Positions 1 to 12,392 of a DNA stretch of 12,392 nt are shown in pieces; positions within the stretch are counted from its first letter, which is position 1, and each line of letters opens with the position of its first letter. Both the position numbers and the translations under genes were made by a program. A model generated the notes under the pieces. It worked only from the letters and a program-made list of their open reading frames with translations, did not search any database and was not told where the DNA came from. Source of the DNA: a virus (lineage: Duplodnaviria; Heunggongvirae; Uroviricota; Caudoviricetes); IMG/VR virus record IMGVR_UViG_2579778982_000015. One strand, written 5' to 3'.

Positions 1-929
1 TAAACCCGCGCGGCCTTCTCCACATCACCAAACGCACTTTTTTCGCCCGGCATCGCCCCCATCAGTTGCGGTGGAACACGGTGCGCAGCCAGCACATCAT
101 CACGGGATGCCGCCTTAACATTCATGAACTCATCTTTTGCGGTGATCTGCTGGAACGGCAAAATTTGCACCCCCTCTTTGCCCCCGTTGGGCGCATGGAT
201 GAGCACGTTTTTAAACGCACCACCACCACGCGCACCCTGTAACGTTTCTTTCAGGGAGTCCATGCTTTCGCGGTTTACCTGCGCTGCACCGATATAGATG
301 ATGCACCCGGCGTGGGATCCATTGTCGTAATACAGTTTTCTGAACATGTCCGCCGAATGAGACAGGCTGGCCGAGAGTAATGCGCCAAGATATTCCGGCA
401 TGCCGTAAATTTCCTGGTTAATGTCCGGATTCATCAGGTGGCACACTTTGCCAGGGCGAAACTGAAACGCATCCTTGCCATCCTGAACATACCACCATGA
501 TTCAAGATCGCTTCCGCGTCGCATGTATTTCGCCAGGGCGTGCCGTAATTTAAGCGGTTCGCCGAGCATATTGCTTCGAAGCTCAAGAAATGCGTTACCG
601 AACACAAACCAGTCCAGCGCCAGCGCCGAGAAATCCTGCCGGGAAAGCAGCGGGTGCGGAATATAGCAACCGAGCAATACATTGCGCTTAAAGTAAAGCG
701 CAGACTGATGCCAGGACGTTTGCCGGGCAGCTCTTGCCAGACCGTACCAGTCCACCGGGGTTTCATACCACCGCCCGTTATCAGCACAGTACATATTGTC
801 CAGCAAATCATGCCCGGTCAGGCGATAAGGACCATCAAATGTGAATGCACTGAGCGACGATTCTTTCCTGAGCGCATCAGCGAGATCAATGCGTGAACTC
901 ATGCGCACTTTTTTATTTTTTCTGCTCAT
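1..929 (-). CDS. Q: Portal protein (P2 gpQ-like), 3'-partial; start ATG at 929..927, C-terminus beyond window start
   Basis: Open minus-strand frame from ATG 929..927 to the window edge (about 309 codons). Translation MSRKNKKVRMSSRIDLADALRKESS ... MPGEKSAFGDVEKAARV reads as a P2-family portal/capsid-vertex protein. Start overlaps the terminase stop (TGATG). Not in the ORF track because it has no in-window stop. Confidence 0.85.
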   Translation of the reverse strand, partial: MSRKNKKVRMSSRIDLADALRKESSLSAFTFDGPYRLTGHDLLDNMYCADNGRWYETPVDWYGLARAARQTSWHQSALYFKRNVLLGCYIPHPLLSRQDFSALALDWFVFGNAFLELRSNMLGEPLKLRHALAKYMRRGSDLESWWYVQDGKDAFQFRPGKVCHLMNPDINQEIYGMPEYLGALLSASLSHSADMFRKLYYDNGSHAGCIIYIGAAQVNRESMDSLKETLQGARGGGAFKNVLIHAPNGGKEGVQILPFQQITAKDEFMNVKAASRDDVLAAHRVPPQLMGAMPGEKSAFGDVEKAARV

Positions 930-2680
930 CAGAACTCCATAACCGTAAAACGCTCGTTTTCCCCTTCGCCGCCAATTGGTTCGTTAATGACAGCAAGCAT
1001 GGTTGCCCACGCAAGGTCGCCGTGGCTGATCCCCCTCGCACGGTCCGTTTCGTAAGTGATAAAACCGCCCGGTGTTTTCACCTTACGCACGGCGTTAAAG
1101 GCCGCGACCAGCTCGCGTTCGGCGCGATCGTATTCCCACCGCCCGGCACGCATTATTTGCAGCATTTTCAGTACCAGCGACCGTTTTGATGACAGCGTGA
1201 AGGTGTACGGAATAGCAGCAGGGAAAAACCGTTTCACTATCTGATAAACAGCCTCCCCGTTCCCGCCCGTCACATCAATGCCGATGTGTTCCACGTTGTA
1301 GCGACACGTGAACTCTTCAATGACTCTGGCCTGTTCTTCAAACTCCAGCCCCTGAACGCGTCGCGTCTCCACCGTTCGAAAACGGCCACCAGGAACAGCC
1401 GGAGGAACCACCACGGACACAGCGCCGCTGTCGCCGTTGCCACTGCTGCCGTTTGCGTCATACCCAATCCATACCGGACGATTCCCCATCGGGCGGGGAG
1501 CAAAAGGTTTCCAGTCTTTCCAGTCGTCGTATCCGTCAACACCGCAGCCAATCAGGATATTCAGGTTAAATGCCGATTCCCCTTCGCGGACAAACTCACA
1601 CATATAGAGATTGCGGAACTCGTCTTCGGTGTTTTCATCACGAATTTCGTCAATATCGGTGTGTTTCCAGCCGTGATTAACCACATCTTCCAGCGTGACA
1701 ATTTGCCGCCACGTCCGGTCAGGGCAGATAAGCCCGTTATGCAGCGTTTTCCAGTCCACAGAAAAACGCTGGCGTTTATGCGTGGCCTTTTTCTCGTTCC
1801 AGCGGTCGCCGTTCCAGTAGGCGTATGCCTCGTGCGTTTCGGTGGATGGCGTGGAGAAGTAGGTGCGCCGCAGTCCGCTGAGGGTTGCCATAGCGCCAGC
1901 CACCTTGCGCAGTTCAGCAAAGCGACTGACCCAGAAAAATTCATCAAAATAAAAATTGCCCGTATAGGACTGTGCCGACGCAGCAGAAGTGCCGAGAAAA
2001 TGCAGCTCTGCACCGTTGGAGAGGATGATTTTATCGCCCCCTTTCAGCTCCACATCAACTTCAGCCGCGGCCTTCTGAATAATGCTTTTGAACTGGAACG
2101 CCTGACGACGCGACGCAGACAAAAAAATCTGGTTACGCTGGTAAGGTTGCGCCACATCGTCACGCAGCGCCATCAGCAGAGCTTCCTGTGCAAAATACCA
2201 GGTCGCCCCAATCTGTCGGGATTTCAGGATCATCCTGTTACGTATCCCGGCTTCCTTGCAAAGTGTCAGGGAGTCAAACCAGCCCCGCTGATGCCACTCC
2301 AGCCTGCTGATGATTTTTTCCCGCAGTGCGGCAATCTGTTCCGGCGTGAAATGATTTTTGAGTTTTTTCGCCCGGCCTTTCTTTCCTGCGGCCATCACAT
2401 CCGGCTGGCCATCATGCAGCTTTTTAAGCTGCCGGGTCAGCAGGTCTATTTCCTTAAAGTCACCGCCTGTTTTATTCTGTTTTTCAGTAAGCTGGATGAG
2501 GCGCGCATCGATGGACTGCGTGACACGCTGCACGGGTGGCGTTTCATCCCACTGGTCGCGTTTTTTCCACGCATAAACCGTGTTCGGGTTTATTCCCATC
2601 AGACGTGATATTTCTGCGGGCGGATAACCCTGCCAGTAAAGTTGCCGCGCACGCTGGCGCACAAAAGCGTCCTGAATCAT
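929..2680 (-). CDS. P: Terminase large (ATPase/nuclease) subunit, P2 gpP-like
   Basis: 583-aa ORF. N-terminal HTH-like GYPPAEISRLMGINPNTVYAWKKR, ATPase region ILKSRQIGATWYFA, C-terminal nuclease-like region. Size and position upstream of Q match P2 gpP (about 590 aa). SD-like GGGGGAG sits upstream of the ATG on the minus strand. Confidence 0.92.
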   Translation of the reverse strand: MIQDAFVRQRARQLYWQGYPPAEISRLMGINPNTVYAWKKRDQWDETPPVQRVTQSIDARLIQLTEKQNKTGGDFKEIDLLTRQLKKLHDGQPDVMAAGKKGRAKKLKNHFTPEQIAALREKIISRLEWHQRGWFDSLTLCKEAGIRNRMILKSRQIGATWYFAQEALLMALRDDVAQPYQRNQIFLSASRRQAFQFKSIIQKAAAEVDVELKGGDKIILSNGAELHFLGTSAASAQSYTGNFYFDEFFWVSRFAELRKVAGAMATLSGLRRTYFSTPSTETHEAYAYWNGDRWNEKKATHKRQRFSVDWKTLHNGLICPDRTWRQIVTLEDVVNHGWKHTDIDEIRDENTEDEFRNLYMCEFVREGESAFNLNILIGCGVDGYDDWKDWKPFAPRPMGNRPVWIGYDANGSSGNGDSGAVSVVVPPAVPGGRFRTVETRRVQGLEFEEQARVIEEFTCRYNVEHIGIDVTGGNGEAVYQIVKRFFPAAIPYTFTLSSKRSLVLKMLQIMRAGRWEYDRAERELVAAFNAVRKVKTPGGFITYETDRARGISHGDLAWATMLAVINEPIGGEGENERFTVMEF

Positions 2681-2834
2681 TGCTCCCCCTGAGTAATTAC
2701 AGGAAGATTACCCGCGCGCGAAACCGTTCTCCTTAACCCCCTGTTCTGGCCGTTTTCTTACAACAAAAGCCCTTTGTATCAGCCTGTTACGCTTTGCCAT
2801 CATGACTGAAGAACCAGTCAGAGGGGCAAAAACT
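2681..2834. promoter_or_regulatory. Divergent late-promoter region between P (leftward) and O (rightward); candidate activator dyad TGT-N15-ACA at 2742..2762
   Basis: 154-bp non-coding gap between divergent operons, which is where P2-family Ogr-dependent late promoters lie. Imperfect dyad TGTtctggccgttttcttACA at 2742..2762; minus-strand -10-like TAATCT at 2706..2711. Spacer is 15 nt, not the canonical 12, so the assignment is tentative. Confidence 0.4.
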
Positions 2835-3671
2835 ATGGCTAATGAAAAAAAGACATCCCGCAAAAAGTTTCGCGTGGCTGTCTCCGGATCAACTGTTGAT
2901 GGCCGCGAAATCAGCCCGGTACATCTGCGTGAAGCCGCCGAGAACTTCAACCCGGATGTTTACGCTGCCCGCGTGAACGTTGAGCACTATCTCTCGCCAT
3001 GCCCGTCAAGCGAATTTTCCGCAATGGGCGATGTCACCGCACTGAGTACGGAAGATATTACGGAAGGCCCGCTGGCCGGACGTACTGCGCTGTATGCAGA
3101 AATCGAACCGACCGAGCGCATGAAGCAGCTTGTCGCTGACGGCAAGAAAATCTATTCCAGTATCGAACTGCACCCGCAGTTCTCCGTTAACGGGCGCGCC
3201 TATCTGGTCGGGCTGGCGATGACCGACACCCCGGCAAGCCTGGGCACTGAGCGCCTGAAATTCACGGCACAGCAACGTCAGGCGGTGATGACGTTCAACA
3301 GTATCCAGGGTGAAGCACCGCTTATCTCCGAAGCCATCGAGTCTGAAATCATCGAAATGGCAGAACAACGCCAGGAAGAAGGCACCCAGTGGTTTAACCG
3401 CGTAATGGGGATTATTGGTCGTGGCCGCAAAGCGGATGACGCCAGTTTTTCCCGTATTCAGGAAGCGGTGGAAGGCGTCGCAACGTCACAGGCCGACATT
3501 ATCGACCGTTTTAATGTGCTGGAAACCCGCCATCAGCAGGACCGCCAGAAAATCACGTCACTGACCACAGAGCTGACAGCACTGAAGGAAAAACTGCGCA
3601 CGCAGGACGGCGATCCGCAGAACCGGTTCACCGCAACGGGCGCAGCCTCCGAGCAGCTGGCTGACTTCTGA
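2835..3671 (+). CDS. O: Capsid scaffolding protein (P2 gpO-like)
   Basis: Translation MANEKKTSRKKFRVAVSGSTVDGREISPVHLREAAENFNP ... has P2 gpO-like N-terminus and length (278 aa from ATG 2835). SD AGAGGGG at 2820..2826. The track ORF begins at 2802, but that ATG has no SD. Double stop TGATAA. Confidence 0.85.
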   Translation: MANEKKTSRKKFRVAVSGSTVDGREISPVHLREAAENFNPDVYAARVNVEHYLSPCPSSEFSAMGDVTALSTEDITEGPLAGRTALYAEIEPTERMKQLVADGKKIYSSIELHPQFSVNGRAYLVGLAMTDTPASLGTERLKFTAQQRQAVMTFNSIQGEAPLISEAIESEIIEMAEQRQEEGTQWFNRVMGIIGRGRKADDASFSRIQEAVEGVATSQADIIDRFNVLETRHQQDRQKITSLTTELTALKEKLRTQDGDPQNRFTATGAASEQLADF

Positions 3672-3694
3672 TAAGACAAAGGAGCAAATTTTTT

Positions 3695-4747
3695 ATGAAT
3701 CTGGTGATGTCAGATATTACCCGCAACAAGCTGGGTTGCTATATGGCGCAGCAGGCGTCGCTTAACAATATCCCGGTTTCCGCACTGGTATCGCGATTTA
3801 CCGTGGAACCCTCGGTACAGCAGCGTTTTGAAAACGCCTCAAAGGAAAGCACCGAATTTACAAAAAGAATTAACGTGATCGGCGTGACCGACCAGAAAGG
3901 CGAAAAAATCCTCCTGGATACCACCGGGCCGATTGCGCGCACGAATACCAGTTATGACGGCACAAAACGCCGTAACCCGAATAATGTGGTTGATCTGAAA
4001 AACCGCAAATACCAGTGCGAACAGGTGAACTACGACACGTTTATTTCATATCCGCAGCTTGATGCCTGGGCGGCACACCCTGATTTTCAGTCCCACATCA
4101 GCGCACAGATTGCCCGACAGGTGGCACTTGACCGCATCATGATCGGTTTCAACGGCACGTCTCACGCGGATGAGTCCAACTTCAGCACCAACAAGTTGCT
4201 TCAGGACGTTAACGTGGGGTGGCTGGAGCACATCAGAACCGACGCCAGCGAACGCGTTATGAATGACGTGACGCTGACCTCCCGTAACATGGACAACACC
4301 GTGGCGCACGCGGGTAAGTATGCGAACGCTGATGCACTGGTACAGGACGCGCGCTCATCCCTGCTGGATGAATGGCACAAGGAAGCTGACGACCTCGTGG
4401 TGATTATGGGGCGCAACCTGTTTAACTCGCTGCGTCTGCCCGTGCTGAACAGCATCAGCGGCCAGAATCCTAATGCGGAATTACTCGCCGGGCAGCTCAT
4501 TCTGTCATCGCGCACCATTGGCGGGCTGGGCGTGTTCCTTGCGCCGTTCTTCCCGGATGCAACGATGCTGATCACCTCGTTCAACAACCTGTCGATTTAC
4601 TGGCAGAAAGGTTCAATGCGTCGTCTGATGAAAGACGAACCGGAATACAACCGCATCGCCACCTACCAGTCCATCAATGACGCTTATGTCGTTGAAGACT
4701 ATGGCAAGTGCGCGATGGTCACTGGCCTGAAGTTCGCCGACAGCTAA
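3695..4747 (+). CDS. N: Major capsid protein (P2 gpN-like)
   Basis: 350-aa ORF with strong SD AAAGGAG 10 nt upstream; size and position match P2 gpN (357 aa); follows the scaffold gene. Confidence 0.92.
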   Translation: MNLVMSDITRNKLGCYMAQQASLNNIPVSALVSRFTVEPSVQQRFENASKESTEFTKRINVIGVTDQKGEKILLDTTGPIARTNTSYDGTKRRNPNNVVDLKNRKYQCEQVNYDTFISYPQLDAWAAHPDFQSHISAQIARQVALDRIMIGFNGTSHADESNFSTNKLLQDVNVGWLEHIRTDASERVMNDVTLTSRNMDNTVAHAGKYANADALVQDARSSLLDEWHKEADDLVVIMGRNLFNSLRLPVLNSISGQNPNAELLAGQLILSSRTIGGLGVFLAPFFPDATMLITSFNNLSIYWQKGSMRRLMKDEPEYNRIATYQSINDAYVVEDYGKCAMVTGLKFADS

Positions 4748-4756
4748 TCAACTCAC

Positions 4757-4775
4757 GGCGGGCATCATGCCCGCC
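4757..4775 (+). other. Perfect hairpin immediately downstream of capsid gene N (stem GGCGGGCAT / ATGCCCGCC)
   Basis: Inverted repeat ggcgggcat-c-atgcccgcc, 10 nt after the N stop codon. No U-tract follows, so more likely an attenuator or mRNA 3'-stabilising structure than a full intrinsic terminator. Confidence 0.4.
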
Positions 4776-4792
4776 TGTAACGGAGAGAAAAA

Positions 4793-5593
4793 ATGATTAC
4801 TCCTGCACAGCAACACTGGCAGAACGTGATGGCACAGCGCGCAGGCCGGGCGAATGAAGGCGTGGACCATGCCGCGCGTACCGCGCATGAAGAGGTGCTG
4901 TATCGTCTGCGTCTGGCACAGGCCCGGCTTAAGGGCGTACAGGCCAGAAGCGCGAAAGCCGCCATCAAAAAAGAGTTGTTGCCGGATTTTTCCGGCTGGA
5001 TTGAGGGAACGCTGGAGGCTGACGGCGGGCAGCAGGATGAAGTGATTGCCACGCTGATGGTGTGGGCGATTGACTGTGGCGATCTTCCGCTTGCGCTGCG
5101 TATCGGCGCGTATGTGGTCCATCACAACCTCATCATGCCGGATAACTTTGGCCGTACTGCTGCCACGGTACTGACCGAAGAAATCTGTAATCCGGTACTG
5201 ACGCAGGCCGGGACGGATGCCGACGCGGATTTGTCCGCCTTTATCGAACCACTGGACACCCTCCGGGAGATTGTCACCGACCAGGACATGCCGGACGAAG
5301 TGCGCGCCAAATTATGCAAAGCGTGCGCCTTTGCCCGCCGTGGCCTGACCGATGCGGACAGCATGGCCTCATCACTGAAGCTGCTGCGCGAAGCGATGCA
5401 CCTGAACCCGAACGCAGGTGTGAAACGCGAGATTGCAACCCTTTCCCGCGCCCTGAAAAAAGCCGATTCCGCAGCCGCACCAGAAGATGCCAGCACACCG
5501 CAGGCGCAGGACGAAAGCAGCAAAAGTAAAAAGACAACGCGGAAGCCTGCAACACGAAAAACCACCGCGACGCAGAAGGCGAAGCGCGGTTAA
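4793..5593 (+). CDS. M: Terminase small (endonuclease) subunit (P2 gpM-like)
   Basis: 266-aa ORF, SD GGAGAG upstream. N-terminal region MITPAQQHWQNVMAQRAG ... KKELLPDFSGWIEG resembles P2 gpM. Ends in a Lys/Thr-rich basic tail. Confidence 0.85.
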   Translation: MITPAQQHWQNVMAQRAGRANEGVDHAARTAHEEVLYRLRLAQARLKGVQARSAKAAIKKELLPDFSGWIEGTLEADGGQQDEVIATLMVWAIDCGDLPLALRIGAYVVHHNLIMPDNFGRTAATVLTEEICNPVLTQAGTDADADLSAFIEPLDTLREIVTDQDMPDEVRAKLCKACAFARRGLTDADSMASSLKLLREAMHLNPNAGVKREIATLSRALKKADSAAAPEDASTPQAQDESSKSKKTTRKPATRKTTATQKAKRG

Positions 5594-5609
5594 CGACTGA
5601 CCCCGTCAG

Positions 5610-5682
5610 CGGGCGGCGTGCGCGGTGTTCCGGTTTGACTCCGTGACCGTTTACACCGAGCACCCACCGCCCGATTTTTTTC
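5610..5682 (+). terminator. Candidate structured element / intrinsic terminator in M-L intergenic region (nested inverted repeats followed by T7 run)
   Basis: Outer stem cgggcgg (5610..5616) with ccgcccg (5667..5673); inner stem cggtgt (5623..5628) with acaccg (5653..5658); TTTTTTT at 5675..5681, just before the SD/ATG of L. Confidence 0.3.
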
Positions 5683-5696
5683 AGGAGTGAACCCCC

Positions 5697-6191
5697 ATGA
5701 GTATGGTTGCCAGAACTGAACCAAGACCCGCAGAGGACGACATCACCGATACCGATGATGGTGATACCCGTATTTCAGCGGGTGCATTCTGGCCGGATAT
5801 TGTGCTGCGTGAGCTGCGTCTGGCGATACGACTGCCGGGCCGTGTGACCACCTCCCGCCTGCTGCATACCGCCACCGGGGCAGTGGCACACGTTACCCGC
5901 GAGCTGGAAGCGTGGCAGCAGGAACAGCAGGCGGCTGGCCATCTGACGCTGGCCGATGTTCCGGCACCCGTAATTAACGGAGAAAGCGTCAATCTCTGGC
6001 ACTGGCGCAATGCTGTTTATACCGCCACACGCGCCCTGATTCTGGAGCGTTACCGCGATGTGGACACAACGGACAAGGGCGACCGCAGGGCGGACGCACT
6101 GGATATACAGACATCGGATTTGTGGCGTGATGTGAGCTGGGCCATCTCTGACATTCTGTGCCGCCCGCGAATCTTTGCGGAGTTGTGCTGA
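5697..6191 (+). CDS. L: Head completion / capsid stabilisation protein (P2 gpL-like)
   Basis: 164-aa ORF, SD CAGGAG upstream; size and position match P2 gpL (169 aa); stop overlaps the X start (TGATG). Confidence 0.85.
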   Translation: MSMVARTEPRPAEDDITDTDDGDTRISAGAFWPDIVLRELRLAIRLPGRVTTSRLLHTATGAVAHVTRELEAWQQEQQAAGHLTLADVPAPVINGESVNLWHWRNAVYTATRALILERYRDVDTTDKGDRRADALDIQTSDLWRDVSWAISDILCRPRIFAELC

Positions 6192-6391
6192 TGAAAGTAA
6201 AGGCACTGGAAGGCGACACCGTGGATTCGCTCTGTTTCCGGTACTACGGCACGACGCAGGGCGTCACCGAAAAGGTGCTGGATGCCAACCCCGGACTCTG
6301 CCAGCAGGTATTTCTGGACGCCGGGCAGGACGTGGAGATGCCAGAGCCGGAGAAGAAGAAACGAGAAATGATTCAGTTGTGGGGGGAGTAG
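6191..6391 (+). CDS. X: Tail protein X (P2 gpX-like, LysM-like)
   Basis: ATG at 6191 overlapping the L stop. 66-aa product MKVKALEGDTVDSLCFRYYGTTQGVTEKVLDANPGL ... LWGE matches the P2 gpX pattern (67 aa). The track's longer frame from 6158 overlaps L and is unlikely. Confidence 0.8.
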   Translation: MKVKALEGDTVDSLCFRYYGTTQGVTEKVLDANPGLCQQVFLDAGQDVEMPEPEKKKREMIQLWGE

Positions 6392-6393
6392 CA

Positions 6394-6717
6394 GTGAGCA
6401 CCATTCAAACAGGGATCACAGAGCAGGTTATTGCGTGGCTCTTTGACCACCTGCCAACGGTGTATGCAGTAGGCGCGGCGGTCAGCATTTCCGCGCTGAT
6501 GAGTCTTTATGACGGACGAACACTGGTTCAGACCGTAACGGGATCGCTGGCGTGCGGCGTTCTTGCCATGGCCGTGGCCGGGTCGTTGCGCTTCTTCGGG
6601 CTTCCTGAAGATGCCGTGACGTTTATCGGCGCATCAATCGGTTTTATGGGGGCAGAGAAAGCACGCGACAAGGTTATTGCGGCCTTTAATCGCAGGGTGA
6701 AGGAGAAGGACGAATGA
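6394..6717 (+). CDS. Putative holin (three predicted TM segments, charged C-terminus)
   Basis: GTG start at 6394 preceded by GGGGGGAG. 107 aa with three hydrophobic stretches (VYAVGAAVSISALM, TVTGSLACGVLAMAVAGSL, VTFIGASIGFMGA) and a basic/acidic tail (EKARDK ... RRVKEKDE). Sits in the P2 gene Y position just before the endolysin. Start codon choice is uncertain. Confidence 0.65.
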   Translation: MSTIQTGITEQVIAWLFDHLPTVYAVGAAVSISALMSLYDGRTLVQTVTGSLACGVLAMAVAGSLRFFGLPEDAVTFIGASIGFMGAEKARDKVIAAFNRRVKEKDE

Positions 6718-7106
6718 GCAACACATTTAAATTCAGTAGCCGGAGCGAAAAGAATTTGCAGGGCGTAAACCCTGATCTGGTGAAAGTGACCCGACGGGCA
6801 CTGGAAATTTCGGAAGTGGATTTTGGTATCACCGAAGGGTTGCGCAGCCGTTACCGCCAGAAGCAACTTGTGGCCACAGGTAAGAGCCAGACCATGAACA
6901 GCCGCCACCTTACGGGGCATGCCGTGGATGTTGTGGCTTATATCGGCAGCCAGGTGTCATGGGAATGGCCGCTGTACGAAAAAATCGCAGCAGCATTCAG
7001 ACAGGCCAGCCGGGAACTGAATATTCCGGTGGAATGGGGCGGCGACTGGAAGACCCTGAAAGACGGACCGCATTTTCAGTTACCACACGGAGCCTATCCG
7101 GCATGA
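6714..7106 (+). CDS. Endolysin, peptidase M15-type L-alanyl-D-glutamate endopeptidase (T5 Lys-like)
   Basis: 130 aa. MSNTFKFSSRSEKNLQGVNPDLVKVTRRALEIS ... SRHLTGHAVDV ... PHFQLPHG closely resembles T5-type M15 endolysins, including an H-x6-D motif and a C-terminal His (Zn ligands). ATGA overlap with the holin stop. Confidence 0.85.
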   Translation: MSNTFKFSSRSEKNLQGVNPDLVKVTRRALEISEVDFGITEGLRSRYRQKQLVATGKSQTMNSRHLTGHAVDVVAYIGSQVSWEWPLYEKIAAAFRQASRELNIPVEWGGDWKTLKDGPHFQLPHGAYPA

Positions 7107-7510
7107 AGCTCTGGCCCACGCTGGGCGTCGCTTTCCTTCTGATTGCCGCATGGGGAACATCCATGCGTCTGTCGTGGTCGCTGGGCCGGGAGAACGCCAG
7201 AAACGAAGCGCAGGCCAGCACCCTGAAAAGTACCGCCGACACCCTGAATATCATCAGCACCGGGGTACAGGATATGCAGCAGGTGCTGGCGCAACTCCGC
7301 GTGGAAAATCAACAACGAAATCAGGACGGAGAGGCAAGACGTGAACAGCTACGCAACGATATTGCAAAAGATGAATGCGCCCACGCTTTGCCTGACGCTC
7401 GTTTTACTGACAGGCTGCGCAGGCACGCAGAACGCGCCACGGCCAGCGCCGTCAGTCCGGCTTATACCGCAGACGCTGACCATACCGGTAACGCCTCCCC
7501 CCTTCCCTGA
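7103..7510 (+). CDS. Rz-like inner-membrane spanin (LysB-like)
   Basis: ATG 7103 overlaps the endolysin stop. N-terminal TM segment LGVAFLLIAAWG followed by a Gln/Arg/Glu-rich coiled-coil-like region; position matches lysB/Rz. Confidence 0.7.
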   Translation: MKLWPTLGVAFLLIAAWGTSMRLSWSLGRENARNEAQASTLKSTADTLNIISTGVQDMQQVLAQLRVENQQRNQDGEARREQLRNDIAKDECAHALPDARFTDRLRRHAERATASAVSPAYTADADHTGNASPLP

Positions 7511-7661
7511 CACTCCCACATGGGGAAATCTCGGTATATGGGGCGACCGCCTTCTGGATGCACTGGAAACCTGTAACGCGGATAAACGGGCCATTGAATT
7601 ACTGGAACAGCGCAGGCTGCAACGACTGAACAACGAGGACAACAACCATGCTGAAAACTGA
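7341..7661 (+). CDS. Rz1-like outer-membrane lipoprotein spanin (LysC-like), starting inside the Rz gene in another frame
   Basis: Lipobox LLTGC after a hydrophobic signal (MNSYATILQKMNAPTLCLTLVLLTGC), then a proline-rich segment (PRPAPSVRLIPQTLTIPVTPPPFPDTP). Overlaps the 3' end of Rz in a different frame and extends beyond it. Start may be ATG 7341 or ATG 7371. Confidence 0.7.
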   Translation: MNSYATILQKMNAPTLCLTLVLLTGCAGTQNAPRPAPSVRLIPQTLTIPVTPPPFPDTPTWGNLGIWGDRLLDALETCNADKRAIELLEQRRLQRLNNEDNNHAEN

Positions 7662-8115
7662 TTCCCTGCGTGAAGCCATGACCCGTTCATGCCGATGGTG
7701 TCAGGCTAACCCGGAAAAATTCACCATTTTCGTGGAGAGCGGCAACATTGAAACGACCGGAGAAACGCCCTCGTTTGTTTACCACTATCAGATGGTGATG
7801 TTTGTCATGGATTACGCCGGGGAGCTGGACGACCTCACGCTGCCGCTGCTGGCGTGGTTATCCGAAAATCAGCCACAGTTGTTGCTCAATCCGGAGCGTA
7901 ATCAGGACATCAAATTTTCCGCCGTTATCAATGACGATGACAGCGCCGATCTCCTGTTTACGCTCCCCCTGCGGGAACGCGTTCGCATCACGCGCAACAG
8001 TCAGGGCACACCGCAGGCAGAACACCTGCCGGAGCCAAAACCCCGCCTGCCATCTTCCGAAGGCGACTGGTCGCATGTATTCCAGGATGTGACGCGGGGT
8101 GAAAGCGATGGATAA
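7648..8115 (+). CDS. R: Tail completion protein R (P2 gpR-like)
   Basis: 155 aa, identical in length to P2 gpR; N-terminus MLKTDSLREAM ... FTIFVESGNI and LPLLAWLSENQP resemble gpR; SD GAGGA upstream. Confidence 0.85.
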   Translation: MLKTDSLREAMTRSCRWCQANPEKFTIFVESGNIETTGETPSFVYHYQMVMFVMDYAGELDDLTLPLLAWLSENQPQLLLNPERNQDIKFSAVINDDDSADLLFTLPLRERVRITRNSQGTPQAEHLPEPKPRLPSSEGDWSHVFQDVTRGESDG

Positions 8116-8743
8116 GGCATTCACCCGCGTGGATGAAACCTTTGAGGCCATCCGCGACAGCCTGAATCAGCAGGCCATCAATAACATCGCCAGAAAGCTG
8201 GCACAGGATTTACGCCGCGCCCAGCAGGCGCGCATCCGGTCACAGAAAGCGCCGGACGGGACCGCATGGACACCACGCAGACGCCGCGTAACCCGGATAC
8301 AGGAGCGCATTCGCTTTATCTGGAATAACGAAGCACGCACGCTGAAAAACTGGCATCACGACACGGGGAAATACGGGCGAACCATCACCGGGTGGGATGA
8401 GGATAAAAACAACATCCGCACGTTTTACCGGGATGACATCGACCGCTTTCTGGAAATACGCACCCGGCGCATCAACCAGGACAGCACAAAGCGCGTCCCC
8501 ATGTTCGTAAAACTGCGCACCGCCCGCCACCTGAAAGCCCGTGCAGATGCTTCCGGTGTGACGGTGGGTTACAGCGGCGTAGCCGCACGTATTGCACGCG
8601 TTCATCAGTACGGTGAGCGCGATCAGGTTGCGCCGGGCATTTTCACCGATTACCCGGTACGTGAGCTGCTGGGTATCAGCCAGGCAGATGAGCGCCTGAT
8701 TTATAACACGGTGCTGGGCCGGATTGCGGAGGCTGTACGGTGA
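8108..8743 (+). CDS. S: Tail completion / virion morphogenesis protein S-like (P2 gpS / Mu G family), apparently extended
   Basis: ATG 8108 overlaps the R stop; the track's GTG 8099 is an alternative start. C-terminal region ARIARVHQYGERDQVAPG ... RELLGISQADERL resembles the gpS family. At 211 aa it is longer than my recollection of P2 gpS (about 150 aa). Confidence 0.7.
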   Translation: MDKAFTRVDETFEAIRDSLNQQAINNIARKLAQDLRRAQQARIRSQKAPDGTAWTPRRRRVTRIQERIRFIWNNEARTLKNWHHDTGKYGRTITGWDEDKNNIRTFYRDDIDRFLEIRTRRINQDSTKRVPMFVKLRTARHLKARADASGVTVGYSGVAARIARVHQYGERDQVAPGIFTDYPVRELLGISQADERLIYNTVLGRIAEAVR

Positions 8744-9186
8744 GCGCAGAACTCATGCGACTGCTGAGCAACATCATCCGCACCGGGATCATCTCTGAAG
8801 TTGATGAGAAGTCCTGGCGCGTGCGCGTTCGCAGCGGCGAACTGGAAACAGGCTGGTTACGCTGGAACACCACGCGCGCAGGAACCTTCAACGTGTGGCT
8901 GCCGCCATCACCCGGCGAACAGGTGGTAATTGCCTGCATTGGCGGCAACCCGGAAACCGCCATGATAATTGGCAGCCTGTGGAGTGATGCCAATCCGGCA
9001 CCCGGCAAAAGCCTGAAAGAAATCGTGATCAGCGCGCCGGACGGCGCGGTGTTCCGCTACGACGCGGACGCAGGCGCACTGAGCGCCAGCGGCATGAAAA
9101 CAGCCACCCTACAGGCATCCGTCAGCGTGAAACTGGATACGCCCGTCGTGGAATGCACAAACCTTCTGAAAACAGCCGACGATTGA
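8740..9186 (+). CDS. V: Baseplate assembly/spike protein V, N-terminal part (P2 gpV-like), truncated by frameshift
   Basis: GTG start overlaps the S stop (GTGA). Product contains MRLLSNIIRTGIISEVD ... GEQVVIACIGGNPETAMIIGSLWSDANPAP ... LDTPVVECTN, typical of gpV. Ends prematurely at TGA 9184..9186; the rest of gpV continues in the +1 frame. Confidence 0.8.
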   Translation: MSAELMRLLSNIIRTGIISEVDEKSWRVRVRSGELETGWLRWNTTRAGTFNVWLPPSPGEQVVIACIGGNPETAMIIGSLWSDANPAPGKSLKEIVISAPDGAVFRYDADAGALSASGMKTATLQASVSVKLDTPVVECTNLLKTADD

Positions 9187-9205
9187 CGTCACAAAAGGGG
9201 GAAAG

Positions 9206-9322
9206 ATGAGCGGCAATATCACGCACAGCGGCGGCGATTTCACCTCAAACGGCATCACAGTGCATACGCATAAACACGGTGGCGTGAAAGGCGGCAGCGA
9301 TTCGACAGGAGGCCCGCAGTGA
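9206..9322 (+). pseudogene. V: C-terminal tip segment of baseplate spike V in +1 frame (38-aa ORF MSGNITHSGGDFTSNGITVHTHKHGGVKGGSDSTGGPQ)
   Basis: Matches the conserved C-terminal apex of P2 gpV (recalled as ... KGGTMRGNIEHTGG ... HTHKH ...). Preceded by AAAGGGGGAAAG, which is also coding sequence in this frame (VTKGGK). Stop overlaps the GTG start of W. Separated from the main V ORF by an apparent single-nucleotide insertion near 9184. Confidence 0.6.
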
Positions 9323-9669
9323 CAACCCGCTACACAGGAATGAACCCGGACGGAACGGGAAACCTGAACGATATGGAGCACCTGAAACAGTCAGTCAGGG
9401 ACATCCTGACCACCCCGCTGGCAAGCCGGGTTATGCGACGGGAATATGGCAGCCTTGTGCCTGATTTGATTGACGAACCCATGAATAACACCACGCGTCT
9501 GCAATGCATGAGTGCTGCCGTGATTGCGCTGACACGATGGGAACCCCGCATTGCCCTGGACGCCATCGACGTTGTCTGGAAAGCAGGAGGCCGCGCAGGG
9601 GTGACGCTGTCGGGCACTGTCATGCAGACCATGCAGAATGTTGAATTAACCATCACGCTGAGAGAGTAA
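9319..9669 (+). CDS. W: Baseplate wedge protein W (P2 gpW / T4 gp25-like)
   Basis: 116 aa from GTG 9319; N-terminus MTTRYTGMNPDG mirrors P2 gpW MTARYLGMN; also SRVMRREYGSL and KWEPR-like motifs. P2 gpW is 115 aa. Confidence 0.88.
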   Translation: MTTRYTGMNPDGTGNLNDMEHLKQSVRDILTTPLASRVMRREYGSLVPDLIDEPMNNTTRLQCMSAAVIALTRWEPRIALDAIDVVWKAGGRAGVTLSGTVMQTMQNVELTITLRE

Positions 9670-9672
9670 ATC

Positions 9673-10569
9673 ATGCCTGCTGTTGACCTTTCCCAGTTAC
9701 CGGAACCCGCCATCATCGCGAAGCCTGATTTTGAGGCAATTCTGGCTGACACAAAGGCCATGATGATTGCGGCCTATCCCGCCGAACAGCGTGAAGCCGT
9801 CTCCGCCGCGCTGGAGCTGGAATCGGAACCCCTGAACGTTATCGCCCAAACAACAGCGTTTCGTGAAATGCTGTTACGCCAGCGGGTCAACGAGGGCGCA
9901 CGCGCCTGCATGTTAAGCCACAGCGCAGGGACAAACCTGGACAACCTCGCGGGCAATATGAACACAAAGCGCCTGACCATCACTCCGGCAACGGATACCA
10001 CCGACGCGGTGATGGAGAGCGACACCTCGCTGAGACTGCGGGCGCAACGGGCGTACGACGGCCTGAGTGTTGCTGGCCCGTCAGGCGCATACGAGTATTT
10101 TGCACGCAGCGCCAGCGGTCTGGTACGCGACGCACGAGCCATCAGCCCGTCTCCGGCAAACGTGACGGTTTCCATCCTGTCCACTGAAGGCGACGGCACA
10201 GCAACGGAGGCGTTGCTTAATACCGTTCGCGCCGTTCTGAATGCAGAGGATACCCGCCCGGTGGCCGACCGCCTGACCGTACAGAGCGCCAGAATCGTGA
10301 CATGGCGGCTGAATGCAAAACTGTACTTTTACCCCGGCCCGGAATCCGAACCTATTCTGGTCGCGGCTGAATCGTCGTTCAGGAAGTGGCTGGCTGAGCA
10401 GGGGCTTATCGGTCAGGACGTGGCGTTGTCCGCCATTGCTGCCGCACTGCATGTGCACGGTGTGCAACGCGTGGAGATAATCGAACCCACACAGAATATG
10501 GCCATCAGCGACATACAGGCAGCGCGCTGTGAGTCATTCACCATCAGCGAAGGTGGGCGCAATGAGTAA
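9673..10569 (+). CDS. J: Baseplate protein J (P2 gpJ-like)
   Basis: 298 aa (P2 gpJ is 302 aa); follows W as in P2; SD GAGAG upstream. Confidence 0.88.
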   Translation: MPAVDLSQLPEPAIIAKPDFEAILADTKAMMIAAYPAEQREAVSAALELESEPLNVIAQTTAFREMLLRQRVNEGARACMLSHSAGTNLDNLAGNMNTKRLTITPATDTTDAVMESDTSLRLRAQRAYDGLSVAGPSGAYEYFARSASGLVRDARAISPSPANVTVSILSTEGDGTATEALLNTVRAVLNAEDTRPVADRLTVQSARIVTWRLNAKLYFYPGPESEPILVAAESSFRKWLAEQGLIGQDVALSAIAAALHVHGVQRVEIIEPTQNMAISDIQAARCESFTISEGGRNE

Positions 10570-11092
10570 TTCACTGTTACCGCCATCAGCCAGCAATTTC
10601 ATGCGTTGTGCCGAAGCCGTCGGAACACGCATTACAGACATTCCGGTAGACCTCAACACGCTGTGGTCGCCGGACACCTGCCCGGTGCATCTGCTGCCTT
10701 ATCTCGCCTGGGCATTTTCCGTTGACCGCTGGGATCGCAACTGGCCGGAAGAGACAAAGCGACAGGTTATTCGTGATGCATGGCTGATACACCGACACAA
10801 AGGGACCATCAGCGCACTGCGCCGGGCCATTGAGCCGCTGGGATACCTCATTCGTGTGTCTGAGTGGTGGGAGTTCGGCGGAGAACCGGGAACATTTACC
10901 GTTGAAGTCGGCACGCTGGACAGTGGCGTGACGGAGGAAATGTATCTGGAAATGGAGCGATTGATTGCTGATGCCCGCCCGGTCAGCCGCCACATGACAG
11001 GGCTGAATATCATTCAGGAAATTCCGGGGGATATTTTCGCAGCGGCGGCAACTTATGACGGTGAAGTAATTACCATTTATCCAGGCGATTAA
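10562..11092 (+). CDS. I: Baseplate / tail fibre-associated protein I (P2 gpI-like)
   Basis: ATG 10562 overlaps the J stop. 176 aa, same length as P2 gpI, with LWSPDTCPVHLLPYLAWAFSVDRWD and MERLIADARPVSRH motifs that resemble gpI. The track's frame from 10529 overlaps J and is less likely. Confidence 0.88.
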   Translation: MSNSLLPPSASNFMRCAEAVGTRITDIPVDLNTLWSPDTCPVHLLPYLAWAFSVDRWDRNWPEETKRQVIRDAWLIHRHKGTISALRRAIEPLGYLIRVSEWWEFGGEPGTFTVEVGTLDSGVTEEMYLEMERLIADARPVSRHMTGLNIIQEIPGDIFAAAATYDGEVITIYPGD

Positions 11093-11094
11093 GT

Positions 11095-12392
11095 ATGAGT
11101 ACCACAACACGAAAATTTAAAACCGTTATCACCAATACGGGTGCAAAAAAATTAGCGCAGGCAGCCACACCAGATGGTAAACCTGTCCGCCTGACTCATA
11201 TGGCCGTGGGTGACGGCGGCGGCACTTTACCCTCGCCAGACAGTAAGCAGACCCGTCTGGTGCATGAGGTGTGGCGACACACTGTTAATCGCGTCTTCCT
11301 GGACGCAACACATCAGAACCGCATTATTGCGGAGCTGGTTGTTCCTCCAGAAACGGGCGGATTCTGGATCCGGGAAATTGGTGTGTTTGATGAGCACGGC
11401 GATTTAATCGCAGTAGGCAATACTGCCGAAAGTTACAAGCCAACCGTTGCCGAAGGGTCAGGACGTGCACAAACATTTCGCACCATTCTGACCGTATCCA
11501 GCACTGCCACTATGGCGCTTACCGTGGATAACACCATGGTAATGGCCACAGTGGATTACGTGGATGACAAACTGAAAGAGCATGAACAGTCACGACGTCA
11601 CCCGGACGCCTCGCTGACCGCAAAAGGCTTTGTTCAACTTAGCAGCGCCACTAACAGCACATCTGAAACGCTGGCTGCGACACCTAAGGCTGTTAAGGCA
11701 GCATATGACCTGGCTAATGGCAAATACACCGCACAGGACGCAACCACTGCGCGGAAAGGGATAGTTCAGCTCAGTAGCGCCACCAACAGCACGTCTGAAA
11801 CGCTTGCGGCAACGCCAAAGTCTGTTAAGGCGGCATATGACCTGGCTAATGGCAAATACACCGCACAGGACGCTACCACTGCACGAAAAGGGATAGTTCA
11901 GCTCAGTAGCGCCACTAACAGCACATCTGAAACGCTGGCTGCGACGCCAAAAGCTGTTAAGGCGGTAATGGATGAAACGAACAAGAAAGCGCCCTTAAAC
12001 AGTCCTGCGCTGACCGGAACGCCAACAACGCCAACTGCGCCAAAAGGGACTAATAATACTCAGATCGCAAGCACGGCTTATGTGATGGCCGCGATTGCCG
12101 CACTTGTAGACTCGTCGCCTGACGCACTGAATACGTTGAACGAGTTAGCGGCGGCGCTGGGAAACGACCCGAATTTTGCGACCACCATGACTAAAGCGCT
12201 TGCGGGTAAGCAACCGAAAGATGCCACTCTGACGGCGCTGGCCGGGCTTGCTACTGCGGCAGACAAGTTTCCGTATTTTACGGGGAATGATGTCGCCAGC
12301 CTGGCAACCCTGACAAAAGTCGGGCGGGATATTCTTGCGAAATCGACCGTTGCCGCTGTTATCGAATACCTCGGTTTACAGGAAACGGTAAA
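11095..12392 (+). CDS. H: Tail fibre protein (P2 gpH-like conserved N-terminal domain plus repeat region), 3'-partial
   Basis: ATG 11095, 2 nt after the I stop. Open to the window end (432 codons). N-terminus MSTTTRKFKTVITNTGAKKLAQAA ... MAVGDGGG ... HEVWRH ... SYKP ... EGSGR ... DYVDDKLKEHEQSRRHPDASLTAKGF is the conserved gpH-type domain; followed by phage tail-fibre repeats. Confidence 0.88.
   Translation, partial: MSTTTRKFKTVITNTGAKKLAQAATPDGKPVRLTHMAVGDGGGTLPSPDSKQTRLVHEVWRHTVNRVFLDATHQNRIIAELVVPPETGGFWIREIGVFDEHGDLIAVGNTAESYKPTVAEGSGRAQTFRTILTVSSTATMALTVDNTMVMATVDYVDDKLKEHEQSRRHPDASLTAKGFVQLSSATNSTSETLAATPKAVKAAYDLANGKYTAQDATTARKGIVQLSSATNSTSETLAATPKSVKAAYDLANGKYTAQDATTARKGIVQLSSATNSTSETLAATPKAVKAVMDETNKKAPLNSPALTGTPTTPTAPKGTNNTQIASTAYVMAAIAALVDSSPDALNTLNELAAALGNDPNFATTMTKALAGKQPKDATLTALAGLATAADKFPYFTGNDVASLATLTKVGRDILAKSTVAAVIEYLGLQETV
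11623..11965 (+). repeat. About 2.6 tandem copies of a 132-bp (44-aa) tail-fibre repeat within gene H
   Basis: Copies begin at 11623, 11755 and 11887; unit K-G-[FI]-VQLSSATNSTSETLAATPK[AS]VKAAYDLANGKYTAQDATTAR; copies are about 90 to 100 percent identical at nucleotide level and in frame. Confidence 0.9.

Follow-up and report, generated by a model that had tools for sequence, protein, structure and literature searches.

Tandem units of about 40 residues are an established element of phage tail fibers and are collected in the Pfam family PF03406 (Phage_fiber_2, 'Phage tail fibre repeat', IPR005068). Two described proteins, P2 gpH (AAD03286, 669 aa) and the tail fiber of phage P88 (AIZ95147, 764 aa), have the same N-terminal domain, array position, and downstream shaft as the fiber examined here, and in both the array ends on the same terminal unit (…VMDETNKKAPLNSPAL). 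P2 gpH has two units, in contrast to the three present here. The P88 fiber also has three, although these are of other types, with Q for L at SETQAAT in the first two; the second unit of our array is a different hybrid. A more distant example comes from phage Mu. Searched against the PDB, a profile of the unit matches only the Mu tail fiber protein S (gp49; PDB 5YVQ, 8JU3, and 9KI1), at residues 117-159 with an E-value of 3e-22. Mu protein S uses the same repeat but as a single unit, behind a different N-terminal domain and in a different phage family. In the cryo-EM work on Mu, only the N-terminus of gp49 was modeled and the repeat was not described (PMC11915804). Literature searches on the P2 gpH repeats and on the PDB codes returned nothing useful. 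More generally, one report presents tandem domain repeats in phage proteins as frequent evolutionary hotspots; the BACON repeats of crAss-like phages described there are likewise tandem domain repeats in a phage tail protein, although they belong to an unrelated domain family and host group (PMC6949934).

Here we describe the anatomy, family assignment, and copy-number polymorphism of one such array, together with the hybrid units found in it and in its relatives. The array lies in a stretch of viral DNA of 12,392 nucleotides, referred to below in its entirety as the window. The repeat family and the gene are both well known; the allele is new, and the array, although real, is ordinary and raises no new question. 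Compared with the rest of PF03406 we find no essential difference: the window holds a three-unit allele with a strict period of 44 residues.

Gene H in a P2-like late region

Pfam searches with the 10 largest ORFs of the window identified homologs of P (terminase), O (scaffold), N (capsid), M (small terminase), L (head completion), R and S (tail completion), and the baseplate genes W, J, and I, all in the order known from P2. The full gene order is P-O-N-M-L...R-S-V-W-J-I-H, a gene content that identifies the window as the late part of a P2-like prophage (Peduoviridae). Gene H opens with an ATG, meets no stop codon before the window ends, and follows a homolog of gene I (PF09684). The upstream homologs follow the V-W-J-I-H-G arrangement of the P2 late operon, with gene G past the window end. 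A fiber of the P2 gpH type is a trimer that binds the host surface and depends on a G-type assembly chaperone; the C-terminal part of H, like the chaperone gene, falls beyond the window. At the DNA level, gene H is 92% identical to the tail fiber gene of Xuanwuvirus P88 over 100% of the query and 84% identical to P2 gene H over 82% of the query, and E. coli prophage genes annotated as 'tail fiber protein' match it as well. The homology to P2 gpH and to the P88 fiber includes the N-terminal domain, PF12571, just behind which the array begins. The protein gives three PF03406 matches, with a score of 200.1 bits against a gathering cutoff of 22 and an E-value of 2.7e-60. A first-pass annotation of the sequence had called this a tail fiber gene, and the two domains, the P2 gene order, and the 84% DNA identity to P2 gpH bear that call out. 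The features of gene H are collected in Table 1.

Table 1. Features of gene H and its repeat array, in window coordinates
Feature	Position	Strand	Remarks
Gene H, 5' part (432 codons), P2 H-type tail fiber	11095..12392	+	Open ORF, PF12571 + PF03406
N-terminal tail-collar/baseplate-attachment domain PF12571, aa 6-153	11110..11553	+	E 3.2e-52
Repeat unit 1 (TAKGFVQLSS...DATT)	11617..11748	+	Columns 1-30 and 88-132 of first-unit type; columns 31-65 of terminal type
Repeat unit 2 (ARKGIVQLSS...DATT)	11749..11880	+	Columns 1-36 of terminal type; columns 45-132 of first-unit type
Repeat unit 3, terminal	11881..11965	+	85 nt homologous, then diverges (VMDETNKKAPLNSPAL)
Inferred crossover interval in unit 2	11785..11792	+	Between column 36 (last of terminal type) and column 45 (first of first-unit type)
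38-nt block in unit 1, containing the 32-mer of the first-pass annotation	11644..11681	+	Identical to 11908-11945 of unit 3
38-nt partner block in unit 3	11908..11945	+	Identical to 11644-11681

Three units of 44 codons

The tandem array of gene H occupies 11617-11965 and consists of two full units of 132 bp, or 44 codons, followed by 85 nt of a third; past column 85 the third unit gives way to unique sequence (VMDETNKKAPLNSPAL). Tandem Repeats Finder reports 11632-11965 with a period of 132, 2.5 copies, 89% matches, and no indels, and a separate repeat search returned three copies at spacings of 132 and 132. The first-pass annotation had described three consecutive, near-identical repeats of 44 residues in frame with the gene. 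The frame is as it stated, since the start codon and its array start lie a multiple of 3 nt apart (11623-11095) and 132 bp make 44 codons. The three repeats are recovered as three PF03406 stretches, the last of them partial at the DNA level. The term near-identical suits the protein, in which units agree at 40-43 of 44 residues, but not the DNA, in which units 1 and 2 share 111 of 132 positions (84%) and units 2 and 3 share 76 of 85 (89%). Pairs of units differ at 9-21 sites, and exact repeats within the array reach at most 41, 38, and 29 nt. Because dN/dS between units is only about 0.04 (range 0.03-0.08) at a dS of 0.5-0.7, the units are old duplicates held under strong purifying selection rather than recent copies of DNA.

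Two other classes of repeat were considered and rejected. The array has no match to PF01391 and its units lack a G-X-Y periodicity, unlike the collagen-like repeats of prophage fibers. Nor does it resemble the target of a diversity-generating retroelement: the differences between units span all base types, fall mostly at third codon positions, and are mostly synonymous, and there is no reverse transcriptase among the 10 largest ORFs of the window. The window contains no Chi site, the H fragment contains no inverted repeat, and no Rfam family matches; we see no sign of an RNA element or of a recombination hotspot motif. AlphaFold2 applied to the single sequence of window 11572-12090 returned a pLDDT of 36 and a pTM of 0.24, an unusable model.

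Copy number varies in whole units

To place the allele among its relatives, we counted units with a profile of the unit in 104 related loci, comprising 80 IMG/VR contigs, 12 loci from species-representative genomes, and 12 phage or E. coli records; two further fetched records stand outside the count. With the window included, the 105 loci range from one to eight units. Two units (46 loci) and three units (35 loci) are the commonest states, followed by four (13 loci), one (four loci), five (three loci), six (two loci), and seven and eight (one locus each). The spacing is 44 residues in all counted arrays except one; locus L014 has a spacing of 56 residues. The first-pass annotation had warned that repeats of this kind can expand or contract and had proposed comparing copy number among related prophages. 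That comparison shows variation in whole-unit steps, with three, four, and five units within the closest lineage alone.

Expansion and contraction can be read directly from several arrays. Loci L092, L078, and L082 contain one, two, and three copies, 100% identical, of one and the same unit and so total six, seven, and eight units, respectively, and in L005 two neighboring units are identical. Hybrid units are found as well. In L102-104, the unit c1' is a hybrid junction unit, and in the single-unit alleles of L060-62 a first-unit 5' part is joined to a terminal 3' part, which is the deletion product expected of unequal crossing-over in a two-unit allele like that of L049. Taken as comparative sequence evidence, the hybrid junction units and the neighbors at 100% identity point to unequal crossing-over.

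The nearest relatives that our searches turned up are prophages of E. coli. The prophage of ETEC H10407 shares 97.5% identity with window 7559-11963. At least seven complete E. coli genomes, H10407 included, carry window 11560-11800 (unit 1 and the start of unit 2) at 100% identity. This identity implies that the arrangement of units 1 and 2 was inherited. The H10407 fiber (WP_000108562) has four units, of which units 1, 2, and the terminal unit are identical to those of the window. ETEC6 also has four; its units 1 and 2 match the window and its terminal unit differs at one site. The extra unit of both strains sits between unit 2 and the terminal unit and combines a 5' part of terminal type with a 3' part that is internal and P88-like. 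A fifth unit is present in strains 90-9280, TW10828, and E2980; made up of the 5' part of unit 2 (columns 1-27) and the 3' part of unit 1 (columns 36-132), it is by its composition a textbook product of unequal crossing-over. N63 has another four-unit mosaic. H10407 and the related ETEC fibers therefore share units 1 and 2 with the window but have four or five units in place of three, and by this comparison the window is the three-unit member of a 3/4/5 allelic series. Among IMG/VR, metagenome contigs, and complete E. coli genomes, the three-unit allele is known from this window alone: exact-match scans found the junction of units 2 and 3 in neither IMG/VR nor metagenome contigs, the junction of units 1 and 2 has no exact match in IMG/VR, and complete E. 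coli genomes do not contain this three-copy allele at >97% identity.

Units 1 and 2 are the mosaic units

The first-pass annotation had noted that 32 bases of the third copy are identical to the first copy rather than to the adjacent second, and had suggested gene conversion or recombination among the repeats. Both of the 32-mers that it quoted are correct, and the full identity extends to 38 nt, a stretch from which unit 2 departs at five sites. Viewed in the window alone, the sites at which copy 3 resembles copy 1 form a run of five, which is modestly non-random (permutation p = 0.023). The comparative data on mosaicism are much stronger than this clustering statistic. When each unit of the window is compared segment by segment with all other units of the 104 related loci, unit 3 agrees fully with the terminal units of L021 and L040 across columns 1-87 and has two mismatches to those of the two-copy relatives L001 and L054; by these matches it is an ordinary terminal unit. 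Unit 2 differs at no or one position from second or terminal units over columns 1-30 and at no or one position from the first units of two-copy relatives over columns 66-132, and on this pattern it is a hybrid of a terminal-type 5' part and a first-unit-type 3' part.

Unit 1, too, is a mosaic. Over columns 31-65, it shows no mismatches to the terminal units of L021 and L040, and within columns 45-63 it has the terminal-unit state at four adjacent informative sites. This terminal-type patch is the reason units 1 and 3 look alike over 38 identical bases. Beside the patch, unit 1 carries private changes at columns 66, 69, 84, and 126; in view of these, the whole segment is as likely to have come from an unsampled allele as from conversion within the gene. 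Recombination among the repeats is thus upheld by the hybrid units, but the units that bear its mark are 1 and 2, not copy 3.

A probable recombining repeat in the fiber shaft

Whole-unit copy-number polymorphism, hybrid junction units, and identical neighboring units are all found in this array and its relatives. We consider it very probable that the PF03406 units form an in-frame variable-number tandem repeat whose copy number shifts by misaligned homologous recombination. On this model, the array would occupy the proximal shaft of a P2/P88-type H fiber, directly after the phage-specific N-terminal attachment domain. Its units would be old duplicates in which purifying selection keeps the protein near constant while synonymous sites drift apart. 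Copy number would move in exact steps of 132 bp through unequal crossing-over or slippage between misaligned units, either of one gene or of a related phage resident in the same cell, and short patches would also pass from unit to unit. The repeat-bearing sequence matches about 1,700 E. coli genomes, at up to 11 places in one genome, which suggests many potential recombination partners within one cell; a further observation is that it occurs at 105 places on plasmids. For the window allele, whose order is first unit, hybrid unit, terminal unit, the model would make unit 2 the crossover junction between a misaligned terminal unit on the 5' side and a first unit on the 3' side, with the exchange between columns 36 and 45, and would have unit 1 gain its terminal-type patch later.

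Three other accounts of what is seen in the window have to be weighed against this recombination history. Conversion of copy 3 by copy 1 within this very genome, with copy 3 as the mosaic unit, is what the window suggests when read on its own, because copy 3 there equals copy 2 over columns 1-27, copy 1 over columns 36-63, and copy 2 again over columns 66-84, and because its T at column 36 is elsewhere a first-unit state. We regard this as quite unlikely, given that the terminal units of other loci match copy 3 as described above, that at columns 45-63 copy 3 has the usual terminal states whereas the first units of two-copy relatives carry the copy-2 states there, and that the arrangement of units 1 and 2, being found in at least seven complete E. 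coli genomes, is not peculiar to this one. Independent synonymous substitution could in principle make copies 1 and 3 agree by chance, with no exchange between units, since all the sites are third codon positions and strong constraint on the amino acids leaves few states available. It is barely credible in view of the four adjacent informative sites of unit 1 that all show the terminal-unit base, the run test (which speaks against chance identity), and the clear hybrid units that recur among relatives. The assembly itself might be at fault, with a true copy number other than three, for instance an ETEC-like array of four or five units collapsed to three; the closest relatives do have four or five units, and the exact three-unit allele is absent from the other sequences searched. 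An artefact is nevertheless very improbable. The junction between unit 2 (…GCTACCACT) and unit 3 (GCACGAAAAGGG) is unlike both corresponding junctions of H10407 and could not be made by collapse of the four-copy H10407 array, which is ruled out on this ground. The window differs from H10407 by 2.5% elsewhere too, and three units are a common state among the 105 loci. With units that differ at 9-21 sites and a longest exact repeat of 41 nt, short reads should resolve the array, and the hazard for short-read assembly raised by the first-pass annotation is small for this allele.

The functional readings are a separate matter. By analogy with what is generally known of fiber repeats, each unit may add one 44-residue module to a trimeric fiber shaft, so that copy number would set its length and reach; a link from unit count to fiber length is conjecture, and unit count might, as the first-pass annotation proposed, also influence host range. 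A stronger version would make the array a selected, fast-switching contingency locus, a dial of fiber length for adapting to the host surface. The divergence of very close relatives (three, four, and five units in the ETEC lineage and six, seven, and eight in another) and the preservation of the reading frame in all copy-number changes would fit such a locus, but adjacent units are 11-16% diverged at the DNA level, which slows slippage, and most alleles have two or three units; we think it unlikely. Somewhat less doubtful, although still improbable, is a dual role, in which a length dial of one to eight units, with the tip reaching through O-antigen or capsule, is combined with a portable recombination adapter. 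If this were true, the conserved unit would serve as a patch of homology that joins the baseplate-attachment domains of unrelated phages to a shared distal fiber. The array does lie exactly where the phage-specific N-terminal domain gives way to a widely shared distal fiber. In non-P2 phages, namely the 49-kb Yersinia phages vB_YpM_39, vB_YpM_41, and vB_YpM_44 and phage 500465-3, homology to gene H sets in exactly with the first unit (query 523-528, which is window 11617-11622), and loci L013-L016 (Shigella, Escherichia, and other loci) match from residue 170-171. The vB_YpM_41 protein begins with an unrelated N-terminus; it then aligns to the window protein, from residue 162 of the latter, at 87.6% amino acid identity. 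This onset of homology at the first unit lends support to the adapter role.

Whichever function applies, the recombining repeat has practical consequences. The region can be annotated as the PF03406 repeat part of a P2-type tail fiber. Its series of one to eight units, with hybrid and freshly duplicated units, would be a clean natural case of unequal crossing-over reshaping a fiber shaft, and the array marks a site at which fiber length might be engineered in whole modules. In prophage typing and alignment comparisons, spurious indels of 132 bp are to be expected at the array.

Neighboring features and related prophages

In relatives of the window phage, a tail fiber assembly gene lies directly downstream of the fiber gene, and an invertible distal fiber module of the Mu/P1 kind is seen (L097 5896-8241, L002 5299-7134, and L103 2036-4982). 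The module runs from the assembly gene to an inverted assembly gene plus an alternative fiber C-terminus; a distal segment of this Mu-like type is thus a further likeness to Mu. A recombinase gene adjoins the module in H10407, and in TW10828 the invertible segment is apparently in the opposite orientation. The window stops within the constant part of H, ahead of the module.

Some of the closest prophages show decay. In E. coli CDF6 (L001 3001-5741), the annotation lists both H and the assembly gene as pseudogenes, truncated or frameshifted, and in E. coli E300010 (L099 1-610) a head-completion gene abuts a baseplate gene, a contact that implies an internal deletion. In vB_YpM_41 (L105 2431-4665, 49 kb), an insertion (AGKAPSNHTHSWEQITNVPVASLTVRG) has shifted the third unit, and the resulting spacing is 56 residues, as in L014. 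Just downstream of the array, at 12018-12043, the window carries a micro-repeat in which the 9-bp sequence AACGCCAAC is present 2.9 times and encodes TPTTPTAP. Its length varies: H10407 has 9 bp less (…TGTPTTPKG…), and ETEC6, N63, and 90-9280 have the version of the window.
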